A stretch of DNA of 44,699 nucleotides from IMG/VR virus record IMGVR_UViG_2684622541_000016, one strand, 5' to 3'. Under the pieces are notes generated by a model. It saw nothing but the letters and a program-made list of their open reading frames with translations. It had not been told where the DNA came from and did no database searches. This stretch comes from a virus (taxonomy: Duplodnaviria; Heunggongvirae; Uroviricota; Caudoviricetes). The first letter of the stretch is position 1. Each line of letters starts with the position of its first letter. Below are positions 6,181 through 33,358 of the stretch, in pieces. A program made the translations under genes and the position numbers.

Positions 6181-6518
6181 CAGATCACCACTTCGTCAAA
6201 CTGACACGAAAAATCGGTATAGGTGATATGTTCTGTCGCTGACCACGTTCGACACACCACTCTGATTTTTCTGTTAATACCCGGCGGGCGCCAAAAAAAA
6301 GATTTATAGCCTTCATGCCGGGCTAAAAATTTTTCAAATGAATCACGTTCATTCGCCTCAACTTTGAAATCACAGGTGAAAACGCGCAGAGAATGATTAA
6401 GTCCATTTGGACTTCGTTGCTCATAACCATCACCAAATCTTACAGTTTTTATCGATGGTTTATTTTCTGTTTTCATTCCATCCTCTGGTAACCAGTGAAA
6501 TTCTTCCGTATTAGCCAC
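6180..6518 (-). CDS. M: Minor tail protein M
   Basis: 112 aa ORF with [10 protein letters not shown] motif typical of lambda M family; position between the tape measure gene and L. Confidence 0.8.
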
Positions 6519-9500
6519 TTAACATTCCCCCATCACGTCGCATATTTAACAGATTGCCCTGCACCCGCTGATCAACCATCCCCATAAGTGCTTTTATTGC
6601 CTGAGGGCCAATCTCTCCATTCTGGCCGTCATTTTGAATAGTGATTTGGTATACAGGGGCATAGGTAATATCTCCGCCTCCATTACCACTTTTACTATTA
6701 ATAGCTCTGACACCAAGAGAACCATCGGAAGTTCGTGTTAATGGCATAATGGCTTCCGGTCCAGCCTCACCAAAAACACCAGCCCCTTTTGCAAAAGCAA
6801 AAAATTGCGGGGAATCATAAATACCGTTCGAATACGTGCTCAATGACGGAGACTCATAAACACCGCCCTTTGCATTCGGAATAAATTTACTAATAGCACT
6901 CCCGATAGTTCCTAAAATCCCCCCAGAAGAACTGTTACTAATGCTGTCGAAAATCCCAGTAATTGAAGCCTTTAATGCTATTCGACTAAGATCCGAAATC
7001 ACGGAAGTAGCGAAAGAACGAAAATTTGCCTTGCCTGTCGTGACAAAATCACCCAGCGCATCGGTCATCCCATCAAACATCTGAGTCGTGGTTGATTTTA
7101 TCTGCTCACTGATATCCTTAGTGTCATCCAGCCAGTTATTGAATCCCTGGGAGGCACCACTAACCCAGTCTCCTGCCTGAATATCGAGCTGCTCGTTTTT
7201 CTGTCTGACAATTTCTTTTTCCCGTTCCAGAGCATCATTCAGAGCCTGCATTTTCTCTTGAAAAACATGATCTGACATTCCACGGGATTTATCTGCATAG
7301 TCACGTTCAAGTTGCAGACGCTGATTGTTATATCCATGTTCAATCCGCAGTAATTCCTGCTGGCGTTGCTGATTTTTATCGCCAACCCCATAACCAGCAA
7401 TCTGAATATCATACCCCTGCTGACGATTATCAATCGAAGCCTGCAATGAATCACGCCATGCTGTTATTTCGGCGGATTCCTTGATTAGCCTGTTATTTTT
7501 TTCAATCGCAACATTTTTCTCCATCAACGTGGTTATTTCTTCCCGGTGTAAGAGAAGCGATTTCTGATCCTGGGTTAATTTCGATGATGGTCGTGACTCT
7601 AGGTCGGCAATCCGCTGACGCCACTTAACCAGTTCCTGTTCAGAGGAACTTAATTTAACGGTCAACTCAGCTTGTGAACTTAGTAACGCATTCTGTTGAT
7701 TCAGATGATCAATCATTCGTTGGGCTGCATCATCAGAATAACCTTTCGCCTTTGGTTGCTTTGGATCTTTATAACGCTCATTTATTTGAGCGATAAGATT
7801 ATTATATTCTTCCTTTGAATACTGATTCTTTAGCTTTTCCAGTTTTGCAAGTTCACTAGCTCTCTGCTGCTCCCGGGTCTGATATTGTTTTGAAAAGGCA
7901 TCTGCTCTCTGTCTGAGTTCAATTCCTTCCTGTTGTCGCTTGTTGTAATCGTTTATTGATGAATTTAGTACGTCCTGAGCAATTTTTTCTGCTTGAAGTA
8001 CGCCCAATTGCTGCTTTAATCGTGCCAGCCTTTTATTTTGAGCTCCGCCATCTCCAATGCCACCTAACCCGAAAACTCCGGGTCGGGTATTTTTTTCTAT
8101 TTCATCAATTTGACGGAGAACATCTGAGATTTTTTGATCAAGGGAGGCCTCACGGCCAATATCCAGCATGGAATCCCATGCCCATTTTGCGGAGTCTGCG
8201 ACAGCTTTCCATGCAGTCTCAAGATAACCAAGATTTTCTTTAATCTGGTTGGTGCGCTGGATCATTGAGGATGAGTATTCTTCTGTCGCAATGCGGGCGG
8301 CCTCCTGCTGGTTCCCTTCATCCTGTAGCGCCTTAATCTGGTTATAAGTCGCAAGTGTCAGAAAATGGTACTGATCATTAAGTTTTGATATGGCACTGAC
8401 AGGATCCTTTGCAATTTCATTGAAGTCATTAACCAGTTGTTCGGTTGATATTCCTGTTACTTCGCTCGTTTTTACTATCGCTGTCGTCACTTGCTCCAGC
8501 GAACTGCTCGCTACCTTTCCCGAACGCACAAGCTGATTTAATACTGCCGCCGCAGCACCAGTTGTCGAATCAGCCGCATTCCCGGCACGTTGAGCTATAT
8601 CGCCCAATTGCCCGCTGGTTGTCCCCAACTGATTTCCGGTAAGAATAAGAGATTTATTAAATTCGTCCTGCTCCTGAGAGCCTTTATAGTAAGCCAGTCC
8701 TAAGACCCCAACGGCTGCTGCGGCCAGGGTAAAAGGATTAATTAATCCCAGCACATAAGAACCTACACCTTTGATCGCCGGGCCAATCCCACCGAACATA
8801 TCTTTTAGCTGGCCGCCCTGCTGCATTAACACCATAAATGGCGACTGACCAGTGGACAACCCAACAACAATATCCGTCATTTGTACAGGCAACATGCGCA
8901 TAGCAAAAGCCGTTTGTTTTGCCGACATTCCGGTTTTGCTTAATTGTGATTGAGTAACCTCAAGCTCACTCCGCATAGCACGAAGTTTTCCAGAAAGCTC
9001 CTCATACATTTCAGGAGAAAGCATCCCCTTAGCTTTTGCTTCATTGAGCTGTTTCTGTTGTTCTACCAGACGATTAAAAGCAGTTCCGACAGGATCAAGT
9101 TGAGCAATCAGACGTTGCAAAGCAACAACCTGTTCATCATGCGCTTTTGCTGCTTCTCGCTCTGCCTGAGCCTCTCCGGTAAGCTCTCGCCGTGTTTCCT
9201 GTATTTTTCGGCTATAATTCTCAAACTGAGAACCATTTATTTTCCCGGATGCAAACGCAGCATTAAGTTCATCATGCTGTTGTTCAAGATTTCTTAGCGC
9301 CGCAGCCAGAGGGTCGATCTTGTCCAGCATTCTTTGAAAGGCCTGAGCCTGCGCTTCCTGCTGGGCGGCAGCAAGTTTTCCGGCCTTCTCGGCTTCTCTC
9401 TGCGCTTGCGCAACCCCGCTCAATTCCTCTGTGGTTTCATTAAGTTTACGGACAAGAAATTCATATTCTTCTTTATCAATAAGCCCTTTATCGAAAAATT

Positions 9501-9744
9501 TCTTTAATTCAGAATAGCGTCGACCGACAGTATCAATTGCGGCACCAACTGGATCAATAGCTGCTTTTAATTTTGCGAGCGCGTTCTTCTCATCTTCTGT
9601 TGCCTTAGTCACTTTCCCTGCGCTATTTGCAGCAGTTTCCCCAGCCTGCGTCATTTTGACTAATGAGGAGGTCAGATTGTCAGCATTATTTTTCGCTCCA
9701 GTGCTATCAATAATTATTGCGAGACGCGAGGTTTGCTCTGCCAT
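6511..9744 (-). CDS. Tail tape measure protein
   Basis: 1077 aa ORF, long coiled-coil-rich N-terminal part (repeated Q/E/A/K-rich heptads) and glycine-rich C-terminus; AGGAG ribosome binding site before ATG; canonical position between G/T and M. Confidence 0.85.
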
Positions 9745-18099: not shown

Positions 18100-19410
18100 T
18101 TAAATCCGAAGTGATGTGACTCTTCCGGTCGGTTTGACAATAGGGAATTGCTTAACGATGAAATAACCTCCGGCATCATTCGGGTGATCATTGCCAGATT
18201 TTTTATCAGGCTCCCCCTTCTCATCCCAGACCTGTTGCTCCAGAGATTCGGCATATAACGGGCAACGCTTCACATTAACTTTATAGCGACGCTCACCATT
18301 GGCATTGCAGAACATTGCATTCATTGAGTTAACGCGATCTTTTACTGGCGGGTTCGAGCTGTTCACCACAACGTTAAAACCAGCCTGCTTAAGCTGGGCT
18401 ATATCCGTCGTACTTGCGTTACTTGATTTTCTGGAATCCCCGGAAGCATCTGGATAAATATAAATTTCCCTCACTTTCCGGTAATCATTCCCATCATACA
18501 GCCAGAAGCGTTCTTTAATGATGCGGATCATATCCGGCGTATCGTAGGCATTGATGATTTCAGTTACCGCACATGGAAGCCCCAAACGCAGCACATGGAC
18601 GATTCCCGCCATCTTTCCAACGTTAAAATCCATCCCAATATAAATCGGCTCCCCTGGCTGCTCCACTTCTTCGCAATTATTCAGTTTCCGGTCAAACTGA
18701 TGGTAAACAGTACCACTTGTCAGGTTAGTAAACTGTCCTCGAAGATAGGCTTTAATCAGCTCTGGAGGGTATGATTCAAGAAGCGAAGGAATGTAATCTG
18801 CTGGCAGGTTCTTTTCATTATCGAAAGTAGATGCCTGCACCAGACCATACAGTGAGGCCAGCTCTGTTTTTTCACGCACGGCTTTAACAAACTGCTCGTA
18901 GACAAATTTGAATCCTTCCGGCGTGGTTGTAACGTCAATACCGTTGCGAAGTCCATCAATCTTATAACGCATACGTGCAATTATCTTGCGCCACGCCGTT
19001 CTGGCTTTTTCCTTCGGCAAAATGTCCAGTTCATCCACCAACGCATTACCAATTTTGAAACCGACGATCGTTTGTGGCTTCTCCATCGATCTGCAGATAG
19101 TGGTTCCCCGATACTGGCGTCCGTAATAAAAGTGAACCTCTTTATTTCCCTCATTAATTTTTACGTTCAATCCCCAGTCAGCAGCAACTTCTTCCACTGT
19201 AGGGTAAAAAATATCGCGAATTTGGGGATACGTTGGCGCAAAATATCCCTGATTTATACCTGGATGCTCCCAAATCCCCTTGCATATGCCGCCACACCCA
19301 ACCCATGTTTTGCCCGAGCCAAAACCAGCAATATAGGCTTTAAATTTATGGGGCATTGAAAGAAATCGCGCCTGAGGCACATTAAGCGTCGGAGAGATCA
19401 TCTTCATCAC
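18100..19410 (-). CDS. Terminase large subunit
   Basis: 436 aa ORF with Walker A-like AGFGSGKT near the N-terminus and a C-terminal nuclease-like region; followed by the portal gene. Confidence 0.85.
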   Translation of the reverse strand: MMKMISPTLNVPQARFLSMPHKFKAYIAGFGSGKTWVGCGGICKGIWEHPGINQGYFAPTYPQIRDIFYPTVEEVAADWGLNVKINEGNKEVHFYYGRQYRGTTICRSMEKPQTIVGFKIGNALVDELDILPKEKARTAWRKIIARMRYKIDGLRNGIDVTTTPEGFKFVYEQFVKAVREKTELASLYGLVQASTFDNEKNLPADYIPSLLESYPPELIKAYLRGQFTNLTSGTVYHQFDRKLNNCEEVEQPGEPIYIGMDFNVGKMAGIVHVLRLGLPCAVTEIINAYDTPDMIRIIKERFWLYDGNDYRKVREIYIYPDASGDSRKSSNASTTDIAQLKQAGFNVVVNSSNPPVKDRVNSMNAMFCNANGERRYKVNVKRCPLYAESLEQQVWDEKGEPDKKSGNDHPNDAGGYFIVKQFPIVKPTGRVTSLRI

Positions 19411-20476
19411 TCCTTACTCTGGCATCAACCACATTAATATTGATCGCCACAGGCTGGGGATGTTCATTATCTTCCACCGTTTCGATCTCTTTGCGCAGCT
19501 TCTGGTTTTCCATTCTGCGCCGTTCAATTTCCAGTTCCCGTAGCCGCTTATCTGCACATAAAGCCCCGCCAGCAGAAAACAAACGCAACAATTCACGCCG
19601 GGCGGCAGCCTTATCCTCCAGCAGGATCTCAACGCCGAATTTTCCGAATTTTGCCCCTGCATATAATTGCCGCGCATCCCCATCAAGCAGAGTGGTATCA
19701 GCCATATAAAGCTGTCCCGTTCCCTCACCGCAGCACTTCGGGCAGTCCGGATTGGGTATGGCGTTATCAACAAAGCCGAGGCCTCCATATTCCGGTTCGG
19801 GTTTGCCATCTCTGGAAGCCTGCGCCGCTGCCTTGTCGAATTCTGCTATATCGCGCCACTGGTAGAGATGATTCTCGCCCCAGCAATAACGGCAGTTAAC
19901 ACGGCGAAATTGTGCAAGCTGATTGGGGTCGGCCAGGACAATAGCCATCAACTGACTCACTAGTAAATCCAGGTCTGCGGTATAGCGTTTCTGGTACTGA
20001 TTGCGGAAGTAGCTGATAGCGCGAAAAACCCTGGCATTTCTAAGCATACGACTGGCGTTGCTGTTAGCTGTCGCACCTTGCCCCTCATAACCGGCTAGTC
20101 GGTACGCCTCTGTCGGCTTTTTACCCTGAGCAACAAGCATCGCAAACTTAGCCTGCTGGTCAGAAATGCCGAATTCATCGGGACAGAACGAAAATTCCTC
20201 CGCGTCGCCCTCATTCAGGCCCGCATCGAATACTGGCTTTTTTTCCTGAGATTTTTCGTTCCGCTTTTGTGCAGTCTGCGCAGATTTTTTCTGCGCACTT
20301 TTTTGCGCAGTTTTGCACATTTCTGTCTGCGCATTTTTCGGAGTTTTTTTGATGTAACGACGGGCTGTTGCGTAATTCAGTCCCCTTGCTTCACACCATG
20401 CCACCGGAGATATACCGGAGCGGGTGTATTCAGCAATATACTCCTGCTGCAACGCCCCCCAGTCCGGTCTGCTCAT
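19382..20476 (-). CDS. Terminase small subunit (Terminase_2-like core with N-terminal HTH and Cys4 ribbon)
   Basis: 364 aa ORF; segment AYRLAGYEG...ASRMLRNARV resembles the small-terminase signature; CxxC...CxxC motif; immediately upstream of the large terminase gene. Confidence 0.7.
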   Translation of the reverse strand: MSRPDWGALQQEYIAEYTRSGISPVAWCEARGLNYATARRYIKKTPKNAQTEMCKTAQKSAQKKSAQTAQKRNEKSQEKKPVFDAGLNEGDAEEFSFCPDEFGISDQQAKFAMLVAQGKKPTEAYRLAGYEGQGATANSNASRMLRNARVFRAISYFRNQYQKRYTADLDLLVSQLMAIVLADPNQLAQFRRVNCRYCWGENHLYQWRDIAEFDKAAAQASRDGKPEPEYGGLGFVDNAIPNPDCPKCCGEGTGQLYMADTTLLDGDARQLYAGAKFGKFGVEILLEDKAAARRELLRLFSAGGALCADKRLRELEIERRRMENQKLRKEIETVEDNEHPQPVAININVVDARVRSDEDDLSDA

Positions 20477-20479
20477 CAG

Positions 20480-20731
20480 TTAGTCCTGATTTTTATCCAC
20501 CCTGAGTAGTTCGCGCAGAGCAAAGGCATCCCCTTTTCTGGCAAGCTTAAACAATGCCGCTCGTAACTCGGCTTCACCTTTCGCTCTGCCCTTACGGATG
20601 GCCGCATAAAAATCTGTCATTGCTTCCCGATTTTCTTTCAGTCGGTTCAGATCAACATCCAGAACGTCAGCGATTTGTTGTGCAGTCATCCGGCACGCTG
20701 CCAGAGACTCGACTTTCGAATACGGAATCAT
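20480..20731 (-). CDS. Small HTH-like hypothetical protein
   Basis: 83 aa ORF MIPYSKVESLAACRMTAQQIADVLDVDLNRL...; the start may be the internal Met (MTAQQ). Confidence 0.4.
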   Translation of the reverse strand: MIPYSKVESLAACRMTAQQIADVLDVDLNRLKENREAMTDFYAAIRKGRAKGEAELRAALFKLARKGDAFALRELLRVDKNQD

Positions 20732-21617
20732 TTGTCACCCCCATTGATATGCAGGGTGTCTTCTTCCTGTATTTTTCGTGAAGGATTTTTACTGCAGCGT
20801 TGTTCCAGGTGACCTGATGGTGAATGCGTTTATGACTGGCACCCATAAGTGAGATTTTTACGCACGACGGCGCATACATGACGGAGTAAAAACTTTTAAC
20901 GTAGGTTCCGGAATCCAGATACAGCTCGGTCATTCCGCCGCTGTTTTTCTGCGTCTGTTTCTGCCCTAACTGGACAGCACCGATCGTCATAAACAATTCA
21001 CCACAGCGACCGAGATTCGTGTACGTATTCACATCCTCGTTAATGCGCCCCATGAATGAGAACGGTCGATCAACCGAACAGATAAAGCTGTTCATTGCCT
21101 TGCGTTTCACCCACGAAGCATGGCCGCCATTGTCACCAAGAAAATCCCCGCCCTGCGACATAGCGATGGAAAGAGCAGGTATTGATTCGTAGTACGCAAG
21201 CATTTCAGAAAGGATCTCATCCAGTTTCCTTATCGGGAAATAGGCCTGGTCATAGTTGCGATCCACCCGAAACTGGAACTCGTGATAATCATCATCGAGC
21301 TGAATGAAGTATTTACACCCGACCAGTTTTGCCTGGTCGAAACAGGCATTACGGGCGTAAAAAATTGAGCGGCGGTCACTAAAATTATCGGCTTCGTCAA
21401 AACGACTAGCAATATCGGCTTTGGAAAATACCAGCACCTGTTCACCAAATTCAGCCATGTACTGATGCCGTGTCTTATCTTCATCATCAACAACGATAAA
21501 AATTTTCCCGGTATAGCCAGCACGACGCAACGTCCGGTAAGTCAGAACTTTGTCCGGTCGCCCGTGAGTCAGAATAAAGGCGCAAAAATCATCACGCATA
21601 TTCCTCCTCCCCGCCAT
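20667..21617 (-). CDS. Hypothetical protein with DxD-type acidic motif (possible GT-A-like transferase)
   Basis: 316 aa ORF; ...KIFIVVDDEDK... and ...YFIQLDDDYHEF...; overlaps the stop of the ParB-like gene. Function is not assignable from sequence alone. Confidence 0.5.
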   Translation of the reverse strand: MAGRRNMRDDFCAFILTHGRPDKVLTYRTLRRAGYTGKIFIVVDDEDKTRHQYMAEFGEQVLVFSKADIASRFDEADNFSDRRSIFYARNACFDQAKLVGCKYFIQLDDDYHEFQFRVDRNYDQAYFPIRKLDEILSEMLAYYESIPALSIAMSQGGDFLGDNGGHASWVKRKAMNSFICSVDRPFSFMGRINEDVNTYTNLGRCGELFMTIGAVQLGQKQTQKNSGGMTELYLDSGTYVKSFYSVMYAPSCVKISLMGASHKRIHHQVTWNNAAVKILHEKYRKKTPCISMGVTNDSVFESRVSGSVPDDCTTNR

Positions 21618-22380
21618 GCATGATCTCCACCATGCGCTGCGTCATTCGGACAAATCCATTTTCAATAGCCTGCTGATAATCAATGATCACCAGCGCCGAC
21701 TCCTCGAAAAGGCACTGAATTTCAGCGGGGGCATGAGCGTAATAGTCCGCAATTCTGCTGAAATTAAACACCGTGTGACGTTCTGCTGCACACAGGAGGA
21801 ATTTCTCAATATCAGGATCAAGGGACGCCGAACGTATCCGGCTGATCAGCTCCTGAGTTTTCGTATCGTCGTACAGTTCACTGATATCCGGTTTACCGCC
21901 TGACGGCTCATAAACAGGCGTATCAATTTTCGTCGTATACGGCTCCTCCTCATTTCCTGTACCGGGCAAAACATCCGTCAACAGTTCATCAATTTCTGCC
22001 GGGATGAAGCCTGTCAGGGAGACATCAAAATCAGCATTGATTAGGTCCGACAGCTCCATCCGCAACAGATCTTCATCCCAGCCAGCATTCATCGGCAGGC
22101 GATTATCTGCCAGGCGGTACGCCTTTTTCTGCTCATCCGTCAGGCCAGACAGAACAATGACCGGAACAGAATCCATTTTGAGCATTTCAGCCGCCATAAC
22201 ACGACCGTGACCCGCAATAATTTCGCCCTTTTCGTCAATCAGCACCGGATTAGTCCAGCCGAATTGCTTAATACTTTCTACCAGTTGTGCCACCTGCTCA
22301 GTACTGTGCGTCCTGGCGTTGTGCGCATACGGTGACAATTCTTGTAATGGGCGATAGACTATCTTTAATTTCTCGCTCAT
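21592..22380 (-). CDS. ParB-like nuclease domain (ParB/Srx fold) protein
   Basis: 262 aa ORF; N-terminus ...YRPLQELSPYAHNARTHSTEQVAQLVESIKQFGWTNPVLIDEKGEIIAGHGRVMAA... fits the ParB N-terminal domain pattern (GHGR motif). Confidence 0.75.
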   Translation of the reverse strand: MSEKLKIVYRPLQELSPYAHNARTHSTEQVAQLVESIKQFGWTNPVLIDEKGEIIAGHGRVMAAEMLKMDSVPVIVLSGLTDEQKKAYRLADNRLPMNAGWDEDLLRMELSDLINADFDVSLTGFIPAEIDELLTDVLPGTGNEEEPYTTKIDTPVYEPSGGKPDISELYDDTKTQELISRIRSASLDPDIEKFLLCAAERHTVFNFSRIADYYAHAPAEIQCLFEESALVIIDYQQAIENGFVRMTQRMVEIMHGGEEEYA

Positions 22381-22394
22381 ACAGCCTTGCTTTA

Positions 22395-22431
22395 TGAATA
22401 AAACGCACCCCAGCAGCCAGTGCTACTGGGG
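22395..22431 (-). terminator. Intrinsic terminator downstream of trkG
   Basis: Stem ccccag / ctgggg (22408-22413 and 22426-22431); the minus-strand T-rich tract corresponds to plus 22395-22403. Confidence 0.4.
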
Positions 22432-22517: not shown

Positions 22518-23975
22518 TTAGGAGCGCCAAAAAAAACCTGAAAACAATATAATAACAGGATAAATTTCAAGGCGACCAAGAATCATAGCTATGCACATTA
22601 AATATTTTGCAATGTCATTAAGCACTCCGAATGACGATGCAGTAGCCCCAAAACCTAATCCCATATTATTAATACATGCAGCCACTGTTGCAAATGATGT
22701 AAGAAAATCATATCCCATACCATTTAACACCAGTATAAAAAACACCGTGAAGAGAGTATAAAGAAAAAAGAAACTCCATACAGACCTCATTACACGATCT
22801 GTAACTATCTTCCCTCCTACATTTACACTCAACAACGCTCTGGGATGAGAAAGCTGATTTATCTCGTGTTTGCTTTGTTTGAAAAGTATAAGAAATCGAA
22901 GTGACTTAATTCCACCACAGGTTGAACCTATACATCCCCCAAAGAAACTTGACAACAGCAAAAACACTATCGTGTGCGTGGGCCAGTTTGCATAATCCTG
23001 CGTAGCTAAACCATTATCAGTGAGCATGGAGCTGGCAAGAAAAAACGAATGAATAAAACTTCCATGCAAGTCATACATACCTATATGCCAGACCTGGAAA
23101 GAGGTAACAATGATCACCCCTAAGGCTATTAACAGAAAGAAACGAAGTTCAATATCTCTGATTAAAGGTTTTATCGTTTTTCTGCTAATAACAATATACC
23201 AAAGAGTGAAGTTGAAAGCCGATAGCAGGGAAAAAGAACCAGCCACCAGCTCAACCAAATAGTTATTAAAATATCCGATACTCTCGCTATGAGTTGAGAA
23301 ACCACCAAGCGAAACTGTGGAAATCCCGTGACAAATAGCATCAAACAAAGGCATTCCTGCAAGTCTATAACAGACAATACAAGCAATACCTAATAAAGAA
23401 TAAGTTATCCACAGTGTCCGTGACGTATCGGCCAGGCGGGGAGTGAGTTTGTCATCCTTAAATGGCCCCGGCATTTCTGACTGATAAAGCTTTGCACCAC
23501 CAATACCCAATAATGGCAATACTGCAACCGCCAGAACAATAACTCCTAAACCACCTATAAAATTTAACTGTGACCGATAGTACAAATATGCCCGAGGTAA
23601 TGAACTAACATCATCAATTACAGTTGCTCCTGTTGTTGTTATTCCAGAAACCCCTTCAAACAGAGCATCAATGAACGTTAAATTAAGTTCTGAGTCAATC
23701 CATAAAGGGAATGCACTAATAACAGAAAACAAAATCCAAAACATTACAATTATAATAAACCCATCACGGGTACGTAATTGAATGCCAGATTTCTTAGTTG
23801 TATACCACGCTCCGCCACCAATGCAAAAAAATATAACGAAAGTTATAAAGAAAACGAACAGGCTTTTTTCTTTATAAAACAATGCTACAACCATTGGTGG
23901 CAACATTGAAAGACTATAGAGCCAAACCAGGAACCCACACATATGAGTAACAACTCTTACATGAGATGTATTCAT
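22518..23975 (-). CDS. trkG: Trk-system potassium uptake protein TrkG (TrkH/KtrB family)
   Basis: Polytopic membrane protein with repeated glycine-containing selectivity-filter-like motifs (GITTTG, GGLG, GGFS, GLGF); 485 aa from MNTSHV; AT-rich; the Rac prophage of K-12 carries trkG at this position. Confidence 0.9.
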   Translation of the reverse strand: MNTSHVRVVTHMCGFLVWLYSLSMLPPMVVALFYKEKSLFVFFITFVIFFCIGGGAWYTTKKSGIQLRTRDGFIIIVMFWILFSVISAFPLWIDSELNLTFIDALFEGVSGITTTGATVIDDVSSLPRAYLYYRSQLNFIGGLGVIVLAVAVLPLLGIGGAKLYQSEMPGPFKDDKLTPRLADTSRTLWITYSLLGIACIVCYRLAGMPLFDAICHGISTVSLGGFSTHSESIGYFNNYLVELVAGSFSLLSAFNFTLWYIVISRKTIKPLIRDIELRFFLLIALGVIIVTSFQVWHIGMYDLHGSFIHSFFLASSMLTDNGLATQDYANWPTHTIVFLLLSSFFGGCIGSTCGGIKSLRFLILFKQSKHEINQLSHPRALLSVNVGGKIVTDRVMRSVWSFFFLYTLFTVFFILVLNGMGYDFLTSFATVAACINNMGLGFGATASSFGVLNDIAKYLMCIAMILGRLEIYPVIILFSGFFWRS

Positions 23976-24112
23976 ATCTAAATATTCTTTCAATTATAAC
24001 CACCTTGCTGCAATATTATGATTATACTGTATAAAATTTAACTCCTCTTAGATCTTACTTCACTGTTCCTTATGAAACAATCATCAAAATGAATCATATT
24101 GTAGTTAAGATT

Positions 24113-24589: not shown

Positions 24590-25077
24590 AAACAGATTTC
24601 ACGCTCAATCTCACGACGAGTCATGAGACCTTTCCATTGCTTACCGCCAGCATATGTCCAGCGACGTAGCTGATCACATGCGCCTTTGATATCGCCCTGG
24701 TTTATTTTGCGAAGAAGCGTCGATNNNNNNNNNNNNNNNNNNNNNNNNNNNNNNNNNNNNNNNNNNNNNNNNNNNNNNNNNNNNNNNNNNNNNNNNNNNN
24801 NNNNNNNNNNNNNNNNNNNNNNNNNNNNNNNNNNNNNNNNNNNNNNNNNNNNNNNNNNNNNNNNNNNNNNNNNNNNNNNNNNNNNNNNNNNNNNNNNNNN
24901 NNNNNNNNNNNNNNNNNNNNNNNNNNNNNNNNNNNNNNNNNNNNNNNNNNNNNNNNNNNNNNNNNNNNNNNNNTCCAGACCATCGTTACCACTTGGGCCA
25001 GTGATTAACACTGATGCTATAGCAATTGCTCCGCCACCAATAGCAGCAGCAACGACTTTTCGTAATGATGGAGGCAT
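24574..25077 (-). CDS. SAR endolysin (lysozyme, phage 21 R type); interrupted by a 249-nt N run
   Basis: N-terminus [34 protein letters not shown] is a signal-anchor-release-like segment; the C-terminus resembles the lysozyme family; start overlaps the holin stop (ATGA). Confidence 0.75.
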
Positions 25078-25543: not shown

Positions 25544-25939
25544 CTAACCTCGCATGTCAAAGCCAGATTTCTGAAAATCTCTGTAGACTTCCGGATTGTT
25601 GAAGGCCGGAAATTTGGCTTTATGAGCTGCGGACTTTATCGCTTCGCAATAGGCTTTATCACCGTTACTGGTAGATATTTTTAACGCCGTGCCATCCTGA
25701 GAGAATTCCATATGCAACCTGCATTTTTTCCCTTTCCAGTTATGCGGCTCATCAAGTTTGGCATTAATTGCAGCTCTGATTCCCCGCGCTTGCGCCCCCC
25801 ATTCATCCTGATCATCCCAGCGTCCTGAACTGCAACTACCTGTAGCAGTAGTTTTGTGGCAATCTGAAGGGTGTAAAGGTGTGCATCCCGCAACAAAACC
25901 GACCCAAAAAGTCAACATAACGATTTTCTTTAATCCCAC
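25544..25939 (-). CDS. Lipoprotein with TolA C-terminal domain (domain III)-like fold
   Basis: GTG start with GAGGAG ribosome binding site; signal peptide plus lipobox VAGC; C-terminal ...KGKKCRLHMEFSQDGTALKISTSNGDKAYCEAIKSAAHKAKFPAFNNPEVYRDFQKSGF... parallels the TolA domain III pattern and is a paralogue of the next gene. Confidence 0.6.
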   Translation of the reverse strand: MGLKKIVMLTFWVGFVAGCTPLHPSDCHKTTATGSCSSGRWDDQDEWGAQARGIRAAINAKLDEPHNWKGKKCRLHMEFSQDGTALKISTSNGDKAYCEAIKSAAHKAKFPAFNNPEVYRDFQKSGFDMRG

Positions 25940-26089: not shown

Positions 26090-26518
26090 TCAGGGTTTAA
26101 AATCCAGCACCCCATTTTGAAATACTTTATATACTTCCGGCGAAGGGGGGGCAGGTATATCAGCATTCTTTATCGCATTCATCGCTTCACGACATAAATC
26201 GAGGTCTCCACTTTCTCTTTTAACCTCCAGTAGAAGGCCATTCGGGGCCATATGCATTCTCAGTGTACACTCTTTTCCTGAATACTTACTCGCATCCCCG
26301 AACTGTTTTTCGATGGCGCTCTTGATTTGATGGGCATACAGACGGATATCCTCACTAACATCAGAAGTACGTTCAGATGAACTCACATACTGTGTCTCTA
26401 TTGCTTTATCGGAGTAATATGATGTACGGTCATGATAATTTGTCGATACAGCATCAGTGCACCCGATAATAATCCCACTAATAATCAACGTAAGAATTGA
26501 TGCGCTACGAAAACCCAT
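26090..26518 (-). CDS. Lipoprotein with TolA C-terminal domain (domain III)-like domain
   Basis: Signal peptide plus lipobox IIGC; C-terminal ...YAHQIKSAIEKQFGDASKYSGKECTLRMHMAPNGLLLEVKRESGDLDLCREAMNAIKNADIPAPPSPEVYKVFQNGVLDFKP closely parallels E. coli TolA domain III as recalled. Confidence 0.7.
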   Translation of the reverse strand: MGFRSASILTLIISGIIIGCTDAVSTNYHDRTSYYSDKAIETQYVSSSERTSDVSEDIRLYAHQIKSAIEKQFGDASKYSGKECTLRMHMAPNGLLLEVKRESGDLDLCREAMNAIKNADIPAPPSPEVYKVFQNGVLDFKP

Positions 26519-28991: not shown

Positions 28992-29271
28992 TTCTCAATC
29001 TCTCGATGGCGCAGCGCAGCAGATGCCAGTTGTTCAGGCTGACGAATAAAGTATAAATAAACTGGCTATGGTGTAAAGCCCCACATAGCATGAACAAACA
29101 CTACATATCAAATAGCTGGTACAAGGATAGAAATACGACACTTATTATTAAAAACGATTAGATAAATTACATTTTAATGTTATGCAAAAGTTCTTTTTTA
29201 TCATAACATTTCAATAAAAGCATTACAGATGCAATCATCCCGTCATCATCAATTATTTAAGGTGGTTAAAC

Positions 29272-29358
29272 ATGGAAAATAACAAGTTCGCACATCTCGC
29301 TCCTTTTTTATCCGTAATCCTTTTCGCTTGTTGTTTTATATGGGCATTATTTTTATAA
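29272..29358 (+). CDS. Small hydrophobic peptide (28 aa), type I toxin-like
   Basis: AAGGTGG ribosome binding site 6 nt before ATG; MENNKFAHLAPFLSVILFACCFIWALFL has a polar N-terminus and one transmembrane-like helix; lies in AT-rich DNA; not in the ORF track (under 60 aa). Confidence 0.3.
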   Translation: MENNKFAHLAPFLSVILFACCFIWALFL

Positions 29359-29766
29359 AGTAGCCACATGATAAGTTGCTGGAATCATATTTCCCACTCA
29401 AGTCATTAACATTTGATAAGATATATCTAAAAGGACGCCTTTACATTATTTATGCGTATATAATTTATTTATATACACAGTAAAGGTATCCTGGGAAAAT
29501 ATTTATCGTTAAAAAATACATCATAAATAATTAAGCTGAAATTTCAGAACACAACTAATACACACAATAAGGTTCAGTAACAGTAATCTATGTGGACTAC
29601 ATCGAGATTTTTTGATTAAACTTTAATAACTTATTCCTAACACACAGAATGCATAAACTAAAAGTAAAACAAATAGTTATACGAAAAACAACCATATTTA
29701 TTCTATCTTCTCCTCTAATCAACATATCAATTATGTGTTTCATAACAGCTTGACATAACCCTCCAA

Positions 29767-29789
29767 AAGATGCATTTTTAATGCATGTT
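29767..29789 (+). promoter_or_regulatory. NsrR-type operator (11-1-11 inverted repeat) upstream of the yeaR-like gene
   Basis: AAGATGCATTT t TAATGCATGTT: the left half equals the NsrR half-site as recalled (AAGATGCATTT) and the right half matches its complement at 9 of 11 positions; 16 nt upstream of the start codon. Confidence 0.5.
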
Positions 29790-29804
29790 TTGGAGGAGGT
29801 GGTT

Positions 29805-30143
29805 ATGACACACAAGAGAATTCCTAAAGATTGGGTAATCAAACGCTCAACTCCGTTCTTCACAAAAGAGAACGTACCTTCAGCGTTATTAACACATCAT
29901 AATACAGCAGCAGGTGTTTTTGGGCAGTTGTGCGTAATGGAAGGCACTGTAACATATTATGGTTTTACTGATGAGAATGCTACTGAACCGGAGATAAAAG
30001 TAGTCATTAATGCTGGCGCTTTTGCAACAAGCCCACCACAATACTGGCACCGTGTTGAACTAAGCGATGATGCTCAGTTTAATATTAACTTTTGGGTCGC
30101 TCCAGACTTTTCGGGCGAAAAAGTCTATAGCACCAAAAAATAG
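29805..30143 (+). CDS. YeaR-like DUF1971 protein
   Basis: GGAGGAGG ribosome binding site before ATG at 29805; product MTHKRIPKDWVIKRSTPFFTKENVPSALLTHHNTAAGVFGQL...FNINFWVAPD resembles E. coli YeaR (about 119 aa) as recalled. Confidence 0.65.
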   Translation: MTHKRIPKDWVIKRSTPFFTKENVPSALLTHHNTAAGVFGQLCVMEGTVTYYGFTDENATEPEIKVVINAGAFATSPPQYWHRVELSDDAQFNINFWVAPDFSGEKVYSTKK

Positions 30144-30172
30144 ATGATCATATTAAAAATGCTTTAACAGTC

Positions 30173-30209
30173 AGACCCGGCAGGGCTATCCCCGACGGGT
30201 CTCATTTTT
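30173..30209 (+). terminator. Intrinsic terminator after the yeaR-like gene
   Basis: Stem agacccg / cgggtct followed by caTTTTTg. Confidence 0.5.
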
Positions 30210-30361
30210 GTAAATATATTGGTTCTACATTGACAGGAGACTTCAACCATAAGAAGTAATCTGAATACTTGAGCAATAAATTTACTTAAGATTAATGAGC
30301 GCACCTTGCCGGACAAAGATAAACCAAGGTAACACCTTTTTTCTAGCCAGTATGTAATCAA

Positions 30362-30580
30362 TCAGAAAGCCGCTCCATAAGAACAACAGCAAGACAATAA
30401 ATTGCCATTACAGCCGCAATAGCCAGCGCACATTTGAGAACCAGCACGACAACCCCCTGTATTAGACGCACACCAGTCCTGATAAATATGAGGCTGTCTC
30501 GTCAGTGATTCAATACAACTATTGGGTATAGTTTCTGTGATTTTATTCTGTAGAAATGGAACACAACAACCAGTCACCAC
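30362..30580 (-). CDS. Cys-rich small hypothetical protein (about 72 aa)
   Basis: GTG start 6 nt after AAGGAA; 14 Cys including CC and CCC clusters (...CAGYCGCNGNLLSCCCSYGAAF); could be spurious. Confidence 0.25.
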   Translation of the reverse strand: MVTGCCVPFLQNKITETIPNSCIESLTRQPHIYQDWCASNTGGCRAGSQMCAGYCGCNGNLLSCCCSYGAAF

Positions 30581-30763
30581 CAGCACTTCCTTAAATGCTC
30601 TAAGTCAGAAACAAGCCAACATTTTAGTCCGCTTTGAGCGATCTGCAGACATTGCTAGCAGCCTTCTGTGTGAATTCTCAGGGAGCAGGTCGGCATAGCA
30701 TCACGTTGAGGCTCTTACCCTACTTGTTCACACCAACCCTAACTCCACAGACTGATTCATAAA

Positions 30764-31765
30764 TTAGTAATCTGCGTGTTTCGCACTTTTCAGAAATGCT
30801 TTCATATTTTCATTAGGTCGCTCAATTTCGAAGTTACTTCCATATAACTCTTGTAATTTTGGCCATAACTTACTTAATAACCCTCTCCTGCGATAAAATG
30901 GATGTATCCAAACGGTAGATAGGTACGGAGAATTTGCATTTGAATTGTTTATTGTGACCAGCCCAACTAAACATTGTCGATAACCACTATTATCCATTGA
31001 TTGTATTTCTTCGACGAATGGATACGCGATTACATCAGTCCAACCATGATCGGTTGTATCCCATTGCATTCCGTCATGACATTCCTTCGACTGATAGCGG
31101 CGTAAAGCTACACACGCGAGCTTTTGCCAATCTGGAGAATTAATTGTGATCTCTTCATCGTATGACGCGCCTATTGGAGCGGGTATTGGTCTGATTAATC
31201 CAGCATGGCATTCATCATAGAACTTCATGTTTCCCTCAGAAACGTTGTGTACGTTGGGTTGCTCCATGTGTGCGCCATTCAAAAATAGCTCTGATAGTAG
31301 TGTATCTACACTGTAATCTTTATTGATTATTGTCGGCTTAGAGTTTTTCTTATTAAGGCCGCGAGTAACGATTTTTTGATCAATGTTAACAACATGGAAT
31401 AATCCGTCGGGGAGGCTAGCGAACCACGATGGGGCATCGGACCAGAATAGCATGCCTTTTGTACTTCTTAAGAGTTTAATTAAGTTAATACAAGCTTCTT
31501 CACTAGTCTTGCCGTTGATGCGAAGTATGTTAGGACTAAAGTAATATTCATCCATATCAGGGAATGCAGCTTCGCAAAACTCCTGTACATAATTTAGCAC
31601 CTGGATTCTACAGAGATCATCATAGCTGGTAATAACTAAGGGGGTATCTTCATTACTATTATGATTATCAATAATGCAATCTATAGCGAGACTTACTGCT
31701 TTGCGTATCACTTCAGTTGAATCTAACGACTCTAAAAATTTTGTCTTTCGTGTGCGAATATCCAT
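30764..31765 (-). CDS. Hypothetical protein with GNAT acetyltransferase-like C-terminal motif
   Basis: 333 aa ORF in AT-rich DNA, 15 nt downstream of the HEPN-like gene; C-terminus ...CLVGLVTINNSNANSPYLSTVWIHPFYRRRGLLSKLWPKL fits GNAT motif A ([VI]-x-P-x-x-R-x-x-G). Confidence 0.55.
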   Translation of the reverse strand: MDIRTRKTKFLESLDSTEVIRKAVSLAIDCIIDNHNSNEDTPLVITSYDDLCRIQVLNYVQEFCEAAFPDMDEYYFSPNILRINGKTSEEACINLIKLLRSTKGMLFWSDAPSWFASLPDGLFHVVNIDQKIVTRGLNKKNSKPTIINKDYSVDTLLSELFLNGAHMEQPNVHNVSEGNMKFYDECHAGLIRPIPAPIGASYDEEITINSPDWQKLACVALRRYQSKECHDGMQWDTTDHGWTDVIAYPFVEEIQSMDNSGYRQCLVGLVTINNSNANSPYLSTVWIHPFYRRRGLLSKLWPKLQELYGSNFEIERPNENMKAFLKSAKHADY

Positions 31766-31780
31766 GTATGACCTGCGCTA

Positions 31781-32803
31781 TTAAAATTCATGAATGAACG
31801 GTTTGTCATCTGGTTGCAAAATGGTGGTTTTATTCGTTGCTACATTTAAACTGTTGTAGAGCATAATTGCCAGGTTCGATGCATTTTCAATCAGCGTTTC
31901 AAGATCCTGGTCTGTAATCACTACGAGGTTCCCTTCTTTATCCTTTCCACCACGATGCACTAAGTGATTTCGATTGAGGGTTGCCAATTCAATAGCTTCT
32001 ATCGGACAGTCTTTTTGTACTTTTATATCGAATGTAGCTTCATAGCGGTCGATTACCTTTTTAGTGCTATGCCAGCTTGCACTGATCAAGTGTTCCTTGA
32101 TTGACCTGATTAGCTCTCCCCTAATTTTCTCGATGGGTTCACCCTTGAAAGGCAACGCAGCAATATCTTTGCTTACTTTAAATTCAGTCTTACCTTTTTC
32201 TATACAATTGGCTATGTAGACATCATCTTTCTCTATAGAATTAATGAATAGCTCAACATAAAGCGTTTCCAAAGCTGTAATAACATTCGTGTAGAGCAAA
32301 CTAAGCAAGTGGTTTTTTTGCTGTTGTTCAGTTTTATCTTTTGCAAGTTTTTTTATTTTATCGATATTATCAATGAATTTTAAATACGGATTACCGGAAG
32401 ACGTTACAGCGTCGTAGATATCATCATCGTACCAATCATCTATATTATTTGAGTTTCCAGACCAGTCAAAACATTGTGTTTGTAATTCATCTACTAATTC
32501 CTCAATATACTCAGATTTAACATATTGACCGAAGATGGATTGTAGTTCTTCGCTCGCATCATACGGCCCGCCATATATGTAAGCATAGCCACCTTCTCTA
32601 CTTTCATACGGACAAGCATTTGCCGGATCTTCAAAGTTTTCAAAGAACCAGTTTTTCATTACTTCGAGTTGATCTTTTTTGCTTATGTATTTTAAAGATT
32701 TTAGTGGAACTTTCTTTCCATTAACCTCGAAAACAATTTTCACGATGTAACGCTCCCTTGTATCAATTGCGCAACTATTATACCACAGCGAAATACAGGG
32801 CAT
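31781..32803 (-). CDS. Hypothetical protein with C-terminal HEPN-like R-x4-H motif
   Basis: ORF 31781-32872; start placed at ATG 32803 (GGAGG 6 nt upstream), alternative GTG at 32743 (AGGGAG upstream, extended -10 TGGTATAAT at 32777-32787); ...ATLNRNHLVHRGG... carries R-x4-H near the C-terminus; AT-rich codon usage. Confidence 0.55.
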   Translation of the reverse strand: MPCISLWYNSCAIDTRERYIVKIVFEVNGKKVPLKSLKYISKKDQLEVMKNWFFENFEDPANACPYESREGGYAYIYGGPYDASEELQSIFGQYVKSEYIEELVDELQTQCFDWSGNSNNIDDWYDDDIYDAVTSSGNPYLKFIDNIDKIKKLAKDKTEQQQKNHLLSLLYTNVITALETLYVELFINSIEKDDVYIANCIEKGKTEFKVSKDIAALPFKGEPIEKIRGELIRSIKEHLISASWHSTKKVIDRYEATFDIKVQKDCPIEAIELATLNRNHLVHRGGKDKEGNLVVITDQDLETLIENASNLAIMLYNSLNVATNKTTILQPDDKPFIHEF

Positions 32804-32941
32804 AACCTGCCTCCTTAAACTAACATACCATGAGCCAGCAATGTCCGCTATTGGCACAAAGCGGACAACCACGCTAGCTCTCCCCTGTGCCAGAAAAATG
32901 TCAATTTACATATGAACTAATGCTCTTTGATCTAGTAACGT

Positions 32942-33358
32942 CTATAAATACCGAAGATTTCCTTGATAAAATGCCAGTACACGTTTCATAACTTCACTCT
33001 TCCGGCACTCGCGACAGATTATGTTCTGACGCCTGTCATAGCGGCGTATTTCTCCGTCTGGTAATGACCAGATAAGGTCAGGATCAACCACAACCGTTTT
33101 TTTCACCTTTGCCCTGGATAGTTTTTTGCGGGCGTTTTTCCAATCCTTACGAGCCTGTTCAGACGGGAATAACCCATAGCCAGAGTTGTATACATCGCCA
33201 CTGGCAACCAACTCTCTGGCAAGAATGCTCATCAGATATCTTGTCGCACCTGTCTTGGCCTCCAGTTGCCTTAACGTCTCGCGCCCACTCTGGCGTACCA
33301 ACTCAACAACCTGCTCCTTAATTTTTTCACGCTCTTCCTGTGTAAAAACTTTTGCCAT
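32942..33358 (-). CDS. Hypothetical phage protein
   Basis: Start MAKVFTQEE at 33358 with GGAGG ribosome binding site; basic, helical-looking 138 aa protein; follows the gene ending at 33374. Confidence 0.5.
   Translation of the reverse strand: MAKVFTQEEREKIKEQVVELVRQSGRETLRQLEAKTGATRYLMSILARELVASGDVYNSGYGLFPSEQARKDWKNARKKLSRAKVKKTVVVDPDLIWSLPDGEIRRYDRRQNIICRECRKSEVMKRVLAFYQGNLRYL

Follow-up and report, generated by a model that had tools for sequence, protein, structure and literature searches.

What does a ParB-like protein do for the glycosyltransferase with whose gene its own overlaps, and onto what does that enzyme place its sugar? The question is raised by a 44,699-nucleotide (nt) stretch of viral DNA (IMG/VR record IMGVR_UViG_2684622541_000016; hereafter the window), a Rac-type lambdoid prophage of Escherichia coli that is 98-99.9% identical to the prophage in strain EC2. 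An initial annotation, made from the letters of the sequence, had proposed that two open reading frames (ORFs) beside the terminase genes form a functional module, and both ORFs are indeed found on the minus strand, as are all of their parts given below, at 21592-22380 (262 amino acids, aa) and 20667-21617 (316 aa). The longer product is a glycosyltransferase (GT) of the TAGT family; the ParB-like product is its dedicated partner, and the two genes form an obligate cassette. The enzyme family itself is already known. What is new here is a TAGT glycosyltransferase that comes with a dedicated ParB-like adaptor and with no hydroxymethylation partner.

First, to which family does the longer product belong? 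Its ORF matches the Pfam profile PF20691 (TAGT, TET-associated glycosyltransferase) with E = 4e-34 and 118.8 bits against a cut-off of 27.5, aa 14-228 aligning with profile positions 4-205 of 205, and it matches PHROG 842 with E = 8e-104; PF20691 is likewise present in 120 of the 120 GT homologues listed. The AlphaFold2 (AF2) model gives a GT-A core of alternating strands and helices, with a per-residue confidence (pLDDT) above 90 over most of aa 11-110, for which Foldseek retrieves GT-A enzymes from the PDB, including ColGalT1, SpsA, GnT-I and glycogenin, and viral TAGT proteins from BFVD, while a PDB sequence search returned nothing at E up to 1. Both acidic motifs that had been picked out by eye are present. 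QLDDDY (aa 106-111) contains the DxD motif D108-D109-D110 (21288-21296), the presumed site of the metal and of the diphosphate of the uridine diphosphate (UDP)-sugar, and VVDDEDK (aa 42-48; 21474-21494), which follows strand 2, presumably contacts the nucleotide sugar, by analogy with other enzymes of this fold. D44, D47 and D108-D110 are invariant in 15 GT homologues, and D108-D110 likewise across phyla. Outside the Pfam model there is a further conserved C-terminal region (ORF aa 222-290), and a 25-aa acidic tail is particular to the E. coli version; as aa 222-316 are modelled with low confidence, no structural conclusion is taken from that region. Profile and predicted fold together indicate a metal-dependent GT-A glycosyltransferase of the TAGT family. 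The protein that could not be placed in any family can thus be placed, and the profile and structure searches returned no match to a structural or packaging protein.

The length of the enzyme also needs correction. Its start is almost certainly Met7 (ATG at 21599), because all homologues and PGAP start there, which makes it a protein of 310 aa (20667-21599). From this start the GT gene overlaps the stop of the ParB-like gene by 8 nt, the overlap being ATGCGTGA. The junction (21592-21611) thus comprises the ribosome-site sequence GGGAGGAGG (GGAGG; 21603-21611), 3-6 nt upstream of the GT start, the start codon itself at 21597-21599 and the TGA stop of the ParB-like gene at 21592-21594. The overlap and the spacing of GGGAGGAGG would fit translational coupling, so the coupling part of the initial annotation stands and its length of 316 aa does not.

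The names under which this enzyme is currently filed deserve some caution. PGAP calls it a 'GREB1-related protein', and both PHROG 842 and RefSeq label such genes 'beta-glucosyl-HMC-alpha-glucosyltransferase', after the T2/T6 enzyme, a member of the family in its broad sense; in T6-like phages, a TAGT adds the second glucose. No T-even phage appears among the 36 tblastn matches of the E. coli GT (E <=1e-5; 50,697 phage records), and the PGAP annotation of the window contains neither a dCMP hydroxymethylase nor an alpha-glycosyltransferase. With no T-even match and no 5-hydroxymethylcytosine (5hmC) pathway, the label looks over-propagated. The same name has spread to the RefSeq phage GTs of NC_024206, NC_021340, NC_019449 and others (L082-L084), again without a 5hmC pathway.

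Second, the nature of the 262-aa partner can be read from its parts. It begins with a ParB/Srx nucleotide-binding domain (aa 1-100; 22081-22380), delimited by alignment with Spo0J, by Foldseek and by conservation, and continues with a helical hairpin (aa 101-135; 21976-22080) seen in the AF2 model, a disordered acidic linker (aa 136-175, pLDDT <50) and a helical C-terminal domain (aa 176-262; 21595-21855) with the motifs FLxxAAxRHxVFxF, IADYYAH and LxExSALVIIDxxxAIxxG. The ParB N-terminal domain with its GHGR motif, recognized from the outset, is upheld by several searches: Pfam ParB_N (PF02195) matches with E = 8.7e-7 and 29.3 bits against a cut-off of 26.3, phrog_620 with E = 1.7e-90 and the PDB entry of Spo0J (1vz0) with E = 1.8e-5, GHGR (aa 57-60) falling on the canonical GERR, and Foldseek matches the domain, which has the ParB-CTPase fold, to PadC, Noc, ParB-CDP, KorB and sulfiredoxin. 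In the Spo0J alignment, N21-x-R23, S36, G41, G57-H-G-R60 and D92-N93 correspond to the ParB motifs NPxQPR, S, G, GERR and EN, so that the phosphate- and cytosine-binding positions R23, S36, G41, R60 and N93 (roles according to PMC13229309) are kept; R23 and R60 vary in the cross-phylum alignment. The ParB domain and hairpin are shared with DNA-modifying enzymes. By tblastn, partner aa 1-140 share 30-55% identity with the N-terminal ends of many adenine and C5 DNA methyltransferases of phages, the matches falling inside annotated methyltransferase genes, phrog_498 covers aa 3-141 (E = 6e-51) and the PADLOC model MTase_II is matched with E = 1.5e-38; Pfam finds no methyltransferase domain in the partner itself.

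The linker carries a linear motif, Y148-T-T-K-I-D-T-P155-V-Y157-E158-P-S160 (21901-21939). Y148, P155, Y157 and E158 are invariant in a six-sequence cross-phylum alignment; in an alignment of 23 sequences the proline is invariant and the second tyrosine nearly so, and the peptide Y-T-x-K-x3-P-x-Y-E-P-[ST] is kept from E. coli phages to an archaeal virus. A profile of this peptide and the C-terminal domain found no Pfam family and no PDB relative for that domain: the PDB match to Adhesin A (E = 0.005; coiled-coil-like sequence) and the Pfam match to Phage_Gene47 (E = 0.01 or worse) were both set aside as chance-level. The C-terminal domain is modelled with low confidence, and no structural conclusion is taken from it; the AF2 alignments for the GT and the partner held just 15-17 sequences. 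The gene corresponds to a full-length 'ynaK', on which a literature search found nothing functional. In RefSeq NZ_CP058571 (strain EC2), which is 100% identical here (L001 21193-21981), PGAP marks just 258 nt at the start of the 262-aa ORF, itself intact, under the name 'ynaK, incomplete, missing C-terminus'; this looks like an artefact of the truncated K-12 gene of that name.

Third, is the pairing of the two proteins general? Among close IMG/VR relatives, 80 of 80 have the ParB partner directly upstream of the GT, and the order ParB-GT-p83-TerS, in which p83 is a small basic protein and TerS the terminase small subunit, holds wherever the contig reaches, even where the terminase large subunit (TerL) is of another family. 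A second search, started from aligned distant GTs, reached remote viral loci. In 77 of 78 diverse environmental viral loci (GT identity 41-47%), the whole partner has its homologue directly upstream, mostly with an overlap of 1-14 nt, and in the sole exception the GT sits at a contig edge. A survey of cellular genomes (GTDB, one genome per species; 80 loci, 77 usable) places the partner next to the GT in 74 of the 77 usable loci, while in the other three the partner is frameshifted or another GT lies between the two. The hosts belong to Firmicutes, Bacteroidota, Proteobacteria, Chlorobi, Ignavibacteria, Verrucomicrobia, Kiritimatiellae, Planctomycetota, Cloacimonadota, Candidate Phyla Radiation (CPR) bacteria, Melainabacteria and archaea, more than 12 phyla in all. 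The same pair is present in Lactobacillus phages phi jlb1 and c5, Nocardia phage NTR1, a Porphyromonas gingivalis phage, the haloarchaeal virus HHTV-2 and a 191-kb Vibrio jumbo phage; in c5, a small cos phage of 31.8 kb whose annotation contains no integrase, the partner and the GT are the first two genes after cos. Where a locus holds two GTs, the whole partner-GT unit is repeated in three of five cases, as tandem duplications (L121 4448-6843, L221 3478-5846 and L242 221-3264). On this record, the ParB-like protein is a dedicated GT partner and the two genes are an obligate cassette, which bears out the proposal of a functional module beside the terminase genes.

The surroundings of the cassette are also recurrent. 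The 82 downstream ORFs include Terminase_3 in 21 and Terminase_6N in 21, in addition to TerS-type helix-turn-helix (HTH) proteins, and TerL or TerS comes next after the GT in most loci. Long GT homologues of 548-551 aa are GT-GT and methyltransferase-GT fusions, and further homologues are kinase-GT, GT-methyltransferase and GT-sulfotransferase fusions; a Rosetta-stone search among the long homologues yielded no ParB-GT fusion. Fused to the GT or as its occasional neighbours there are S-adenosylmethionine (SAM)-dependent methyltransferases, sulfotransferases, P-loop kinases, second GTs, UDP-galactopyranose mutase and nucleotidyl transferases, and the tandem units together with these tailoring enzymes suggest multi-step glycan building. 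In L242 the first GT is itself fused to a P-loop kinase. Upstream of the cassette, the most frequent family is DUF6171 (Pfam), in 5 of 41 diverse viral loci.

This record also bears on whether the partner could have an ordinary ParB role, either in plasmid or chromosome partition or as a ParB-like nuclease that aids terminase cleavage, the GT being unrelated to it. Database labels say as much, 'chromosome (plasmid) partitioning protein' being the one used in GenBank phage records and 'ParB-like partition nuclease' another, and HNH proteins that are needed for cos cleavage have a similar position next to terminase. However, the prophage annotation contains no ParA gene, Pfam detects no HTH and no canonical ParB C-terminal dimerization domain in the protein, the protein is tied strictly, across domains of life, to a single GT clade whose reading frame overlaps its own, and this coupling survives in partners that have no ParB domain at all. 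The idea matches the data poorly and is very improbable; given the architecture and the strict coupling to the GT, both the partition and the terminase-helper readings were rejected.

How, then, might a ParB-like protein serve a glycosyltransferase? The closest functional precedent comes from phage dioxygenases. Phage ParB176 is an obligatory, cognate-specific activator of the thymine dioxygenase 5mYOX176 on double-stranded DNA, and the commonest neighbours of phage 5mYOX genes are GT, ParB and terminase (O'Toole et al. 2026, PMC13229309). Compared by description, ParB176 and the partner share a nucleotide-binding domain, a short helical segment, a disordered linker of ~40-50 aa and a C-terminal domain, with no DNA-binding domain, and the mutated residues of ParB176, N14, R16, S29 and R56, are spaced almost like N21, R23, S36 and R60 here. 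The ParB176 gene, too, adjoins the DNA-modifying enzyme that it activates; here the client would by analogy be a GT, not a dioxygenase. In the same study, GTs go mainly with ParB-independent dioxygenases, the GT-associated 5mYOX clade having no ParB (PMC13229309), and in our case the prophage annotation and Pfam show no 5mYOX beside the ParB-like partner. A second precedent is covalent: a survey of the ParB-CTPase fold describes ParB-methyltransferase fusions (N6_N4_Mtase, Methyltransf_23) that are enriched in prophages, and does not mention glycosyltransferases (Kaljevic et al. 2025, PMC12704722). These fusions (PHROG 498) share the nucleotide-binding domain and hairpin module with the partner at 30-55% identity, but there ParB is joined to the enzyme, whereas here it is joined to a putative docking peptide and C-terminal domain, with the enzyme separate and coupled. 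A literature search found no paper on a ParB-GT cassette without a dioxygenase.

On the side of the enzyme, phage TAGT-type GT-A enzymes glycosylate 5hmC in DNA (Burke et al. 2021, PMC8256090; bioRxiv 10.1101/2023.12.21.572611). They have in common with the GT of the cassette the membership in the hidden Markov model family, the GT-A fold, the DxD motif, the phage origin and the frequent ParB and terminase neighbours; they differ in that the GT here has an obligate partner protein and no TET/5mYOX, C5-methyltransferase or ThyA-like companion. The link to DNA modification suggested in the initial annotation therefore holds by homology, through the TAGT family, the ParB module of phage DNA methyltransferases and a ParB that activates a thymine dioxygenase (PMC13229309). 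The notion that such proteins guide modifying enzymes is not itself recent. From what later papers relay of the work in which Iyer et al. in 2013 defined the TAGT family, ParB genes reportedly occur in phage DNA-hypermodification clusters, and ParB is said to have been proposed there to direct the modification machinery during packaging.

From these precedents we favour, with moderate confidence, an adaptor-dependent glycosylation of phage DNA before or during packaging. From the phage late operon, the two genes would express a two-component system for glycosylating nucleic acid. As the synteny suggests, the C-terminal domain and linker peptide may bind the cognate GT, and the ParB module, by analogy with ParB176 and KorB/KorA, could be a nucleotide-gated clamp or loader that holds the enzyme on the phage duplex. 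The enzyme would then transfer the sugar of a UDP-sugar to the phage DNA, either shortly before the adjacent terminase packages it or while this is under way, with protection from host nucleases as the likely benefit.

Several observations weigh against this proposal. Physical contact between the partner and the GT is deduced from synteny alone. In the partner, N replaces Q and H replaces E at the positions that align with the CTP-hydrolysis residues of ParB in the Spo0J comparison (roles according to PMC13229309), the protein is strongly acidic (pI 4.5-4.7), and Pfam detects ParB_N only, with no HTH or other DNA-binding domain. About one in ten partners, for example those of L110, L121, L158, Vibrio phage pv27, several bacterial metagenome-assembled genomes (MAGs) and a Methanosphaera MAG, have no ParB domain and consist of ~130 aa that retain the peptide and C-terminal domain. 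DNA loading by ParB thus cannot be essential everywhere; the peptide and C-terminal domain, which are kept even in partners without a ParB domain, are the GT-specific element, and the ParB module is a frequent add-on. A literature search gave no report of modified DNA in Rac-type or other cassette-bearing phages. Further points against it come from the missing acceptor and from GREB1, to which we now turn.

The known acceptors of TAGT-family enzymes are 5-hydroxymethyl-pyrimidines, or a sugar that such a base already carries (bioRxiv 10.1101/2023.12.21.572611 among others). Where would such a base come from? No TET/JBP (5mYOX) enzyme, ThyA-like hydroxymethylase or C5-methyltransferase is found in the prophage by PGAP names and by Pfam on the larger unnamed ORFs, none of these genes is found in the 31.8-kb genome of phage c5, and no such family recurs among 231 upstream ORFs of the diverse loci (81 immediate and 150 further), where a Thy1, an N6/N4 methyltransferase and a sugar nucleotidyltransferase each occur once. 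With no recognizable maker of 5-hydroxymethyl-pyrimidines, the acceptor should be either something other than 5hmC and 5-hydroxymethyluracil (5hmU) or the product of an unrecognized enzyme, and this question of the acceptor is the real point of interest of the cassette.

The second option amounts to conventional glycosylation of 5hmU or 5hmC, with a precursor enzyme that is too divergent to recognize, encoded elsewhere or supplied by the host. All known phage TAGT members use hydroxymethyl or sugar acceptors, and thousands of 5mYOX-like sequences have no Pfam TET/JBP annotation (O'Toole et al., PMC13229309). A Thy1 gene lies upstream in 1 of 41 loci, and a few ORFs without a family do remain, such as ORF25 of c5 (208 aa, no Pfam match). 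On the other hand, the window contains the whole prophage, whose large unnamed ORFs (333 and 363 aa) match GNAT and HEPN/RES weakly and not 2-oxoglutarate (2OG)-oxygenases; no candidate co-varies with the cassette over the 231 upstream ORFs; and a shared host enzyme is unlikely, as the hosts span bacteria and archaea. We regard a hidden precursor pathway as improbable. Alternatively, the two proteins may be self-sufficient and transfer the sugar onto an acceptor that is not a 5-hydroxymethylpyrimidine, be it a canonical base or the backbone of the packaged DNA, or the Tyr/Thr peptide of the partner, which would thereby be primed. This specific arrangement is rather unlikely in our estimate.

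The peptide leads directly to the main rival of DNA glycosylation, in which the GT O-glycosylates protein. The target would be the linker peptide of the partner or an adjacent packaging or virion protein, and the partner a substrate, carrier or targeting subunit. That a TAGT-family domain can glycosylate protein instead of DNA is known from GREB1, a eukaryotic protein of 1,949 aa with a helicase-like module, which O-GlcNAcylates oestrogen receptor alpha on Thr/Ser (PMC7968844); as its catalytic domain belongs to the same family, GREB1 is relevant here merely as a precedent for a non-DNA acceptor. The Tyr/Thr/Ser-rich motif in the disordered linker, conserved from E. coli phages to an archaeal virus, would make a plausible substrate, the peptide and C-terminal domain remain after ParB loss, no source of a hydroxymethyl base was found in the prophage, c5 or the upstream ORFs, and the cassette adjoins structural and packaging genes. 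Yet the ParB module is the one that is fused to DNA methyltransferases, a DNA dioxygenase has a ParB of this architecture as its activator (PMC13229309), the closest characterized phage relatives of the GT family act on DNA, and the conserved linker peptide could equally well be a docking motif. Protein glycosylation is a possibility to be taken seriously, and an unlikely one.

The genomic setting speaks to timing and to one further idea. The window holds a complete prophage, with the integrase at its right end. In the EC2 prophage record, recET, kilR, sieB, ydaSTUV, a Q-like antiterminator, the lysis genes essD/rrrD/rzpD and a trkG moron are followed by the ParB-GT pair and then by TerS, TerL, portal, a P22-type capsid gene and the tail genes; the pair lies within the late operon, downstream of the Q antiterminator and between lysis and terminase genes. 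Could it instead be a prophage-encoded defence against superinfecting phages such as the T-even phages, the GT hyper-glycosylating their hydroxymethylated DNA or acting in the lysogen in some other way? The idea has been raised for prophage GTs (bioRxiv 10.1101/2023.12.21.572611), and prophage carriage is common, 867 of the 5,426 complete E. coli genomes (16%) having at least 80% of the 2.1-kb cassette region. However, the late-operon position is an awkward one for defence, the cassette is also found in the small cos phage c5, the jumbo phage and the archaeal virus, and PADLOC gives no defence-system match for the GT. Defence, too, matches the data poorly, and we consider it highly unlikely.

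Around the cassette, on the minus strand, lie TerL (18100-19410; Pfam, PHROG and PGAP), TerS (19382-20476; Pfam and PHROG) and p83 (20480-20731; 83 aa, or 69 aa by PGAP). The last resembles part of a TerS family (phrog_309, E = 8e-23) and accompanies the cassette in enterobacterial phages. TerS is unusually long at 364 aa, with a Cys-rich insert (CRYCW...CPKCCGEG), and both TerS and p83 are co-inherited with the ParB-GT cassette in these phages while TerL varies. On the other side, a terminator-like hairpin of 10 pairs, 7 of them G-C, followed by a T run (22408-22431, minus strand) stands between the ParB-like gene and trkG (22518-23993, minus strand), a K+ transporter gene that is a moron between the lysis cassette and the ParB-like gene; many viral loci that are otherwise alike have no trkG, and in them the cassette comes straight after other genes.

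Farther away, the two adjacent unnamed ORFs of 333 aa (weak GNAT match, E = 9e-4) and 363 aa (weak HEPN/RES N-terminal-domain match, E = 2e-4) occupy 30764-32872 (minus strand) in a region of 33-41% GC (low-GC stretch ~29000-33000). They may be an accessory or defence pair; neither has a PADLOC match, and strain EC2 has a frameshift in one of the two. A further pair of small ORFs (25544-25939 and 26090-26518, both minus strand), whose products begin like lipoproteins and are annotated as TolA C-terminal-domain proteins, lies between the lysis genes and the region of the Q-like antiterminator; these proteins could hinder Tol-dependent uptake, a form of superinfection exclusion. The tape-measure gene (6511-9744) is intact in the window, whereas in strain EC2 an IS1 element splits it. 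Masked sequence appears as runs of N at 2403-2451 and 24725-24973, the second of which breaks the lysozyme gene rrrD.

Finally, what would the cassette mean for phage biology? Sugar modification of phage DNA has so far been tied to prior hydroxymethylation, by thymidylate-synthase-like enzymes or TET-like dioxygenases. The cassette described here is very widespread, common in E. coli and with relatives that range from Lactobacillus and Bacteroides to haloarchaeal viruses, and its genes presently go under the labels 'partition protein', 'GREB1-related' and 'beta-glucosyl-HMC-alpha-glucosyltransferase', so that annotation is affected as well. As a two-gene unit it is directly testable in E. coli. 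If it modifies DNA, this would imply an acceptor chemistry that is new or a precursor pathway that has stayed hidden, and would add glycosyltransferases to the dioxygenases as DNA-modifying enzymes that, as was recently discovered for the latter, a ParB activates. Should the acceptor be other than a 5-hydroxymethylpyrimidine, the ParB-like adaptor with its peptide and C-terminal domain would represent a new class of glycosyltransferase activator. The matter bears on the restriction and sequencing behaviour of common prophage DNA: were direct DNA glycosylation true, there would be undescribed glycosylated DNA in the prophages of about one-sixth of sequenced E. coli and in the viruses of more than 12 phyla.

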